Of a stretch of DNA of 62,930 nt, positions 21,922-23,458 are shown one piece after another. The notes under the pieces were generated by a model, which was not told where the DNA came from, did no database searches, and worked only from the letters and a program-made list of their open reading frames with translations. Position numbers and translations under genes: made by a program. Origin of the DNA: Candidatus Micrarchaeota archaeon (GTDB taxonomy: Archaea > Micrarchaeota > Micrarchaeia > Anstonellales > Bilamarchaeaceae); contig JBDRPL010000024.1 in assembly GCA_043827025.1 (NCBI GenBank), forward strand, positions 1 through 62,930. The letters run 5' to 3'. Within the stretch, counting starts at the first letter, position 1. Every line of letters begins with the position of its first letter.

Positions 21922-23458
21922 TGGAGGTGATCTATCCGCAGGTTCCCCTACGGATACCTTGTTACGACTTAGCCCCCCTTACGCCTCCCCAATTCGAACC
22001 AGGCAAAAACCTGGGCCTCATCGAGAAAACACTTGGGTGACTTGACGGGCGGTGTGTGCAAGGAGCGGGGACACATTCACCGTGGGATGATGACCCACGA
22101 TTACTAGGGATTCCATCTTCATGAGGGTGAGTTTCAACCCTCAATCCGGACCACGAATGGATTTAGGGGGTTAGCGTCTTCTTTCGAAGTTGCAGCCCAT
22201 TGTTCCATCCTCTGTATGCCGCGTGTAGCCCAAGATTTTCGGACCATACTGACCTACCGTCGCTCACTCCTTCCTCCCACTTAGCGCGGGCAGTCCCCTT
22301 AAAGTACACCCTATCCGGAGATAGAGTTAGTAATTAAGGGCATGGGTCTCGTTCGTTGCCTGACTTAACAGGACAGTTCACACCACGAACTGACGATGGC
22401 CATGCAATACCTCTCGGCTCGTTAAGTAAGATCTTTAGTCTGACTTTCATTCTGCCGTCGATCTTGGTGAGGTTCCTGGCGTTGTATCCAATTGAACCGT
22501 AGCATCCACCCCTTGTGGTGCTCCCCCGCCAATTCCTTTAAGTTTCAATCTTGCGACCGTACTCCCCAGGCGGCTGACTTAACACATACGTAACTTCTTG
22601 GTTTTGATCAAACAATTTACCAAAAAGTTTCTACGCTACAGCACTACTTTGGATAACTCCAAAGTAACACCAAAGTCAGCATCATTTACAGCTGGGACTA
22701 CCGGGGTATCTAATCCCGTTTGCTACCCCAGCTTTCGTTCCTCACCGTCAGACACGTTTTGGGCAGGCGCCTTCGCCACTGGTAGTCCTTCTAGGCTCAA
22801 AGGATTTTACTCCTACCCTAGAAGTACTCCTACCCTCCCCCGTTCTCAAGACGTAAAGTATCTACTGCGCGCATTGAGGTTGAGCCACAATATTTCACAA
22901 TAGACTTTTCCATCCGGCTACGAACGCTTTAGGCCAAATATTCACGGATACCACTTGAGGCGCTGGTGTTACCGCGGCGGCTGCCACCAGTCTTGCCCAC
23001 ACCCTTATTCTCCAACTGTTTTAGAGTTGGCAAAAGATACAAGTAAAACCTGTACCACTCAGAGTCCCCTTATCATACTTTCGTACATTGTAAAGGTTTC
23101 GCGCCTGCTGCATCCCGTAGGACTAGGGTCCTTATCTCAGTACCCTTCTGGGGGCCACCACTTCCATGGCCCCTAGGGATTATCGGCTTGGTGAGCCATT
23201 ACCCCACCAACTACCTGATCCCCCGCAGTCTCATCCTAAGGCGGACTGGCTCCAATTCGCCAGCCATTTAAATCATCAAGTATTCCAACATAGATGACCT
23301 ATCGCGTGTTAGCCTCAATTTCTCGAGGTTATCCACGTCCTTAGGGCAGATTGACCACGTGTTACTCAGCCGTTTGCTGCCCACAGAAGTCTGTGAGCCA
23401 ACTTGCATGGATTAATCGAACTCTGATAGCAGTATCCTCCAGCAGGATCAACTGGAGT
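21922..23458 (-). rRNA. rrs: 16S rRNA (stand-alone, intron-containing)
   Basis: 5' ACTCCAGTTGATCCTGCTGGA; GCAGCCGCCGCGGTAA; ATTAGATACCC; AAACTTAAAGGAATTGGCGG; 3' GATCACCTCC; no 23S or tRNA adjacent. Confidence 0.98.
22586..22630 (-). other. 45-nt BHB intron in 16S rRNA
   Basis: GCGU/ACGU 4-bp helix, AGA and AUG bulges, 11-bp intron stem; excision restores normal helix length. Confidence 0.8.

Follow-up and report, generated by a model that had tools for sequence, protein, structure and literature searches.

A Candidatus Micrarchaeota archaeon carries in its 16S rRNA gene an insert of 45 nt, located in the loop of the h26a hairpin, which we interpret as a gene-less bulge-helix-bulge (BHB) mini-intron. 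It is predicted to be excised by the organism's own tRNA-splicing endonuclease, and we assign this reading a probability of about 0.85. The reading is derived from the borders of the insert, its fold, a structural frame that recurs with compensating base changes in related genomes, and the presence of the splicing enzymes in the host genome. The stretch of DNA that was analysed, termed the window in the following, comprises 62,930 nt.

Position, fold and junction of the 45-nt insert

The draft genome of the host comprises 1.33 Mb in 36 contigs, with an estimated completeness of 91.6%, and in it the 16S and 23S rRNA genes are located on separate contigs. One RNA gene is present in the window, namely that of the archaeal SSU rRNA at 21922-23458 on the minus strand (Rfam RF01959, 1397 bits), and it covers the model completely from position 1 to 1478. 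Besides SSU rRNA, no Rfam family scored above its gathering score in the window. The gene has a length of 1537 nt with the insert and 1492 nt without it, compared with 1478 nt for the model, and the 45-nt block thus accounts for most of the excess; the remaining approximately 14 nt fall into a variable hairpin close to the 5′ end. The flanks of the gene (23459-23678 and 21702-21921, minus strand) can pair over long stretches in a duplex fold, as GACUUAUGCC does with GGCAUAAGUC or GUACUCGU with ACGAGUGUAC, and this modelled pairing looks like a processing stem.

In the local alignment to the archaeal SSU model, the h26a loop contains 47 bases compared with 2 in the model, i.e. 45 extra bases. 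The model describes h26a as a consensus stem G-g/c-C with a loop of 4 nt. The insert occupies 22586-22630 on the minus strand, with the RNA 5′ end at 22630 and the 3′ end at 22586, so that the last base of exon 1 is G22631 and the first base of exon 2 is G22585. In rrsH of E. coli MG1655, h26a starts at position 861 and its loop bases are 863-866, which places the insert behind the equivalent of 866 and ahead of that of 867. The model alignment and the rrsH numbering therefore reproduce the coordinates, the length and the E. coli position that a preliminary description of this DNA had given.

The 45-nt insert is the only large insert seen in the two large rRNA genes of the genome; the 23S rRNA gene (G000:C7:43573-46514), with 2942 nt compared with 2987 nt for its model, contains no large insert. 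A blastn-short search of the host genome returned no further copy besides the self-match, the other matches being 10-18 nt long with E values of at least 0.13. The insert has no coding capacity, and with 45 nt it is too short for the gene of a homing endonuclease, as had been noted before. Two other intron classes were considered and ruled out. A self-splicing group I or group II intron is incompatible with the length of 45 nt and with the lack of any match to an Rfam catalytic core, and an rRNA intron bearing a homing endonuclease would need a gene that is too large for 45 nt, the inserts found at this site in all genomes being 29-60 nt long.

In RNA sense the region reads GUAGUGCUGUA-GCGU-AG|A-AACUUUUUGGU-(16 nt)-ACCAAGAAGUU-ACGU-AU|G-UGUUAAG, where the vertical bars mark the predicted cuts. 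It can be folded into two 3-nt bulges on opposite strands, which are separated by a central helix of 4 bp and bordered by an inner helix of 11 bp and an outer helix of 3 bp. All of these elements lie on the minus strand. The central helix consists of the exon strand GCGU (22633-22636, the equivalents of E. coli 861-864) and the intron strand ACGU (22588-22591), which corresponds to intron bases -6 to -3 as given by the sequence frame. The 5′ bulge A-G|A is located at 22630-22632, with the predicted cut after G22631, and the 3′ bulge A-U|G at 22585-22587, with the predicted cut after U22586 and with G22585 belonging to exon 2. On the inner side, the fold gives an intron stem of 11 bp between 22619-22629 and 22592-22602. 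On the outer side, GUA of exon 1 (22637-22639) faces UGU of exon 2 (22582-22584) in a weak helix of one A-U and two G.U pairs, and enforcing this helix in a short context costs about 5.4 kcal/mol. Because of this weakness, the closure of the motif is firm towards the intron and loose towards the exons. The dimensions of the central helix, bulges and intron stem, as well as the weakness of the outer exon helix, agree with what had been described for this site earlier.

A stretch of 81 nt around the insert folds with -19.7 kcal/mol, compared with -12.1 ± 2.4 kcal/mol for shuffled sequences (z -3.15), and one of 200 shuffles folded equally well. The free-energy minimum itself is found in a register moved by one base, with GCGUA paired to UACGU and a GAA bulge, or in a nearly continuous helix. 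Such a shifted or near-continuous minimum-energy fold could, as far as the folding model goes, also arise from a retained helix.

The exact borders of the insert are defined by relatives that lack it. Intron-less relatives read GCGTAG|GTGTTAAG at the site, which is exactly the predicted ligated junction. Removal of 22586-22630 yields GCGUAG|GUGUUAAG, which is identical to the sequence of these relatives and restores the 4-nt loop of the model, while a cut one base earlier or later would create a sequence seen in none of them. Where groups of relatives have variant exons (GGGTAG|CTG, GAGTAG|TTG and ...|GTCTTAAG), the same exon ends are found in the intron-bearing genome of the respective group. 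The third base of the 3′ bulge is the first exon-2 base of the intron-less relatives, and in all 16 inserts known from this site the borders defined by the relatives lie, in either bulge, directly behind the second base. From work on tRNAs it is established that the splicing endonuclease cuts after the second base of the bulge. The ligated product which the preliminary description had derived from such cuts is exactly the sequence present in the intron-less genomes.

Distribution and conserved frame in the order

For a survey of the order, the 16S sequence of an intron-less relative was used as the query. Sequences were examined wherever the match exceeded the query length or was split at the site; elsewhere, a matched stretch of the same length as the query was taken as absence of an insert. 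The insert counts thus combine the reading of match tables with the examined sequences. Four genomes (G058, G062, G077 and G146), in which the match stops short of the site, were left out. An insert at the site was found in 16 of the 122 genomes covering it and was absent from 106. The family of the host contributes 65 of the covering genomes, 14 of them with an insert, and the eleven other families of the order contribute 57, with two inserts. Presence varies within genera (3 of 3, 2 of 5, 1 of 3, 1 of 6 and 1 of 22 genomes); in the genus of the host, the sole other genome gave no 16S match. Alignment of related 16S genes, which had been named as a way to check the intron, thereby showed that 15 other genomes carry inserts built on this frame and that the intron-less ones have the predicted junction.

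Two genomes contain a second, different 16S fragment, namely G066 (L049, G066:C55:1-524) and G104 (L047, G104:C110). In the former the h26a region reads bacterial, and the latter resembles other families of the order. Both second fragments are probably due to bin contamination, and each of the two genomes was counted once.

The 16 inserts at site 866 range from 29 to 60 nt and are mostly unlike in sequence. With the borders defined by the relatives, all 16 show the same frame of a 3-nt bulge, a 4-bp central helix and a second 3-nt bulge (3-4-3). The central helix has all four pairs in 13 of the 16 and three of four in the inserts of G008, G139 and G155. As 5′ bulge, 14 inserts have AGA and two have AGU, and the 3′ bulge, which always comprises 3 nt, is AAG in 12, AUG in two, and AGC and AAU in one each. 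Beside the bulge, the intron stem runs for 4 bp or more without a mismatch in 15 of the 16 inserts, the exception being that of G010, where one base pair is followed by a mismatch. When the letters of the inserts were shuffled 5000 times, a full central helix was obtained in a mean of 0.43 of 16 inserts, with a maximum of 4, and a combined criterion in a mean of 0.08, with a maximum of 2; these statistics overstate the support because the 16 inserts are not independent of each other.

This dependence is visible in the insert interiors, at least four pairs or trios of which are related in sequence. Compared with shuffles, the z values are 7.6 for G018 and G008, 5.7 for G008 and G113, and 5.2 for G018 and G113, followed by 6.7 for G002 and G139, which belongs to another family, 6.1 for G006 and G107, and, for the insert of the host genome, 5.3 with G048 and 4.4 with G106. 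At least seven or eight unlike insert sequences nevertheless keep the frame. The frame is accompanied by substitutions on both of its strands. The exon of G103 is GAGU and its intron strand AUUC, the change of exon C to A being matched by that of intron G to U, and in G002 the exon GGGU pairs with the intron GCUU. Over the 16 inserts, the second central pair is C:G in 13 and G:U, A:U and C:U in one each, and at each of the five initial pairs of the intron stem, three to five standard pair types occur. Judged from these alignments, substitutions in the central helix and in the intron stem compensate each other.

The loops show a different picture from the stems in two of the related groups. In G002 and G139 (L019 and L055) as well as in G018, G008 and G113 (L010, L023 and L040), the interior loop is nearly identical and the stems differ by compensatory changes. 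The loop motif GGTTTTTAGG-N-ACG-N-G is common to two different families, and the motif AACGCCGATG...ATGGCG...ATGGA to three genera. Such near-constant interior loops may indicate that the loop of the intron is itself under selection.

Further interruptions within the 16S rRNA gene came to light during the survey. The gene of G010 (L042, G010:C3:20700-23650) is broken into at least 18 BLAST pieces and contains another short insert directly after CCTGGGGAG, at about E. coli 889 and a few bases past site 866; it gives the impression of a single gene exceptionally rich in mini-introns. In G009 (L018, G009:C3, approximately 418-470), an insert of 50 nt lies between GAAA and CTTAAAGG, at about E. 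coli 906/907, and in G166 (G166:C4:3973-4271) the match breaks off at this query position too and resumes about 127 nt later. This position is near the published loci 901 and 908. In another family of the order, the 16S match is split at about E. coli 917-919 with approximately 650-700 nt between the pieces (G153:C6, G120:C8, G140:C26, G149:C88, G124:C60 and G118:C55), and these splits resemble large introns located at the published locus 919 or close to it.

Splicing enzymes and competing explanations

The host genome encodes a tRNA-intron endonuclease of 392 aa (G000:C6, L031 886-2064), in which the catalytic domain PF01974 is recognized with 99.8 bits and the N-terminal domain with 28 bits. 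Its residues 4-392 align with PDB entry 4FZ2 (395 aa) with an E value of 1.3e-131. According to the available part of the source, this entry represents the apo form of the epsilon2-type enzyme of ARMAN-2 (PMC12397907). In the collection of named genomes, all 21 confirmed relatives of the endonuclease belong to records titled Micrarchaeota or kindred names and show 47-71% identity, on which grounds the host is regarded as a Micrarchaeota-like DPANN archaeon. Enzymes of the epsilon2 and (alpha-beta)2 types are described, in the accessible portions of two papers, to cut also relaxed motifs in which one bulge or a flanking helix is disrupted (PMC5829648, PMC12397907), and the acceptance of such motifs by the epsilon2 type fits a substrate with a weak outer helix. 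The ligase RtcB is likewise encoded at full length (G000:C11, 554.5 bits).

An aragorn run with intron search listed only 20 tRNA genes in the host genome and predicted introns of 21-128 nt in 14 of these genes, although these calls are unreliable. Many tRNA genes may be interrupted at places for which aragorn has no model; such genes are reported, in the part of the literature at hand, from organisms with an epsilon2-type endonuclease (PMC5829648).

The following course of events is proposed. In the pre-16S rRNA, the exon sequence GCGU would pair with the intron sequence ACGU and thereby create two 3-nt bulges 4 bp apart, which would be closed on the inside by the 11-bp intron stem and on the outside by the weak 3-bp exon helix. 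The homodimeric endonuclease of the epsilon2 type would then cut after G22631 and after U22586, RtcB would join the exons to the normal hairpin GC-GUAG-GU, and the same ligase would probably circularize the 45-nt intron. The BHB intron that the preliminary description had proposed is supported, as a prediction, by the junction of the relatives, by the compensatory inserts and by the encoded endonuclease and RtcB.

RNA data from the environment were inspected in the form of two groundwater metatranscriptome runs of one study (X1 and X2), which contained 0.60 and 0.48 of the sampled words, respectively. Their contigs include long identical pieces of the 16S rRNA, for example 22053-22375 and 23104-23419, and have zero depth at 22586-22673 and no joint of 22631 with 22585. 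Besides the insert, this gap takes in the neighbouring hairpin of exon 1, with 43 nt of exon sequence that are needed in the mature RNA, and is therefore a gap of the contig set that is uninformative on splicing. The DNA run X4 is likewise without cover at 22586-22673.

Some observations count against the intron reading, namely that no contig of X1 or X2 covers the insert or joins 22631 to 22585, that the central helix contains a mismatch in three of the 16 inserts, that in G010 the stem beside the bulge is interrupted after 1 bp, that the inserts are partly related to each other, that the outer helix is weak and that the energy minimum is shifted. The energy minimum in particular would suit an expansion segment, i.e. 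45 bases that would stay in the mature 16S rRNA and lengthen the h26a hairpin at the surface of the subunit, since it comprises a nearly continuous extended helix. The site is a terminal loop, and such loops often tolerate additional helix length; in addition, the contigs of X1 and X2 show no joint across the insert. Still, we consider such a retained segment unlikely. It leaves unexplained why bulges of invariably 3 nt stand exactly 4 bp apart in inserts of 29-60 nt and why they match, to the base, the borders given by the intron-less relatives; moreover, the central helix takes up exon bases required for h26a in the mature RNA, and presence of the insert varies within genera.

The BHB evidence would be the same if the insert were cut out and the exons were left unjoined, so that base pairing keeps the pieces of a fragmented 16S rRNA in place, as it does for intervening sequences in bacteria, and ligation is at present a prediction. 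This course is very unlikely in view of the encoded RtcB, of the base-exact conservation of the exon ends, which is expected if the ligated loop is of importance, and of the archaeal rRNA BHB introns described so far, all of which are reported to be spliced and ligated in the available text of Jay and Inskeep 2015 (PMC4496867). An assembly artefact or chimera, in which the insert is no part of the organism's DNA, might be considered for a draft genome in 36 contigs. Its probability is negligible, for a contig of 263 nt from a DNA run, possibly of the source sample, is identical over 22547-22809 and spans the insert, which is thus not peculiar to one assembly, and inserts are present at the same base in 15 other genomes.

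Given excision as a BHB intron, the related intron sequences in several genera and in two families suggest that the site-866 intron probably persists by descent and is often lost. A further idea, which we regard as doubtful, is that the inserts represent one old gene-less lineage that moves or is selectively kept without a homing endonuclease. It is prompted by the related interiors across genera and, in G002 and G139, across families, together with the nearly constant loop, which would imply function or horizontal spread. If this were true, the excised or unspliced RNA would be functional, for instance in the assembly of the small subunit, or the intron would spread horizontally by reversal of the endonuclease and ligase reactions followed by reverse transcription and recombination.

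Relation to known rRNA introns and significance

In the available text of Jay and Inskeep 2015, BHB introns of archaeal 16S rRNA genes are assigned to 13 loci, namely 374, 548, 722, 781, 803, 901, 908, 919, 978, 1093, 1205, 1213 and 1391, and hairpin-forming representatives of less than 50 nt are described from Thermoproteales, Desulfurococcales and Aigarchaeota (PMC4496867). The insert described here resembles these short introns in having no ORF, a simple hairpin and a BHB motif at the insertion site, and it shares with the introns of that study the location in a highly conserved part of the 16S rRNA and the patchy occurrence among relatives. It differs from them in its site, as 866 is absent from the 13 loci given there for Crenarchaeota and Aigarchaeota, which bears out the earlier remark that this position lies outside the commonly listed crenarchaeal sites. 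The hosts differ as well, since the host here is a small-genome DPANN archaeon found in groundwater runs, with an enzyme of the epsilon2 type instead of the (alpha-beta)2 type.

Insertions in 16S rRNA genes of Micrarchaeota have been published for ARMAN-2, Mia14 and ARM-1 (PMC8784108, PMC5498576; available parts). They share the lineage and the host gene with the insert at site 866. That of ARM-1 comprises about 520 bp with an ORF and is located at E. coli 1093, and its splicing was left open by the authors in these texts; in contrast to it, the present insert has 45 nt, is non-coding and is located at 866. For rRNA genes of DPANN archaea, BHB introns have been shown beside group I introns, and the positions listed in the accessible text are those of the latter alone (Nawrocki et al. 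2018, PMC6125680). Within the searchable literature, which excluded subscription papers and figures, neither a catalogue of BHB intron sites in DPANN 16S rRNA genes nor a mention of site 866 was found. The intron site 866/867 thus appears to be new.

To our knowledge, bacteria have no BHB pathway. A comparable situation is known from CPR bacteria, whose rRNA genes carry many insertion sequences that are removed from the transcripts (PMC11270868; available part). The organisms are alike in having small genomes and a probably symbiotic mode of life, and the inserts differ, as those of CPR bacteria are described there as group I/II-like or as carrying homing endonuclease genes (PMC11270868). Structural counterparts are the canonical and relaxed BHB introns of archaeal pre-tRNAs processed by epsilon2-type EndA (see also PMC3488258), which likewise have two 3-nt bulges 4 bp apart, and for which, in the portions of the papers available, a weak or missing flanking helix is stated to be tolerated by this enzyme type (PMC5829648, PMC12397907). 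In contrast to these, the host RNA here is an rRNA, and its status as a substrate is predicted from sequence.

The results add the h26a-loop site 866/867, which has been used repeatedly within one order of Micrarchaeota. The 16 natural variants constitute a small mutational series for what an endonuclease of the epsilon2 type would accept in rRNA: the 3-4-3 frame is strictly kept, the bulges are rich in A, and the helix is strong on the inner side and very weak on the outer one. In practical terms, the usual 16S primer sites 806 and 907/926 flank the insert, so that amplicons and alignments of these organisms become 29-60 nt longer than expected, and an rRNA annotation that ignores the intron will give a wrong mature sequence. 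As an intron that carries no gene and varies in its presence within genera, the site-866 insert is useful for studying the gain and loss of introns in archaea.
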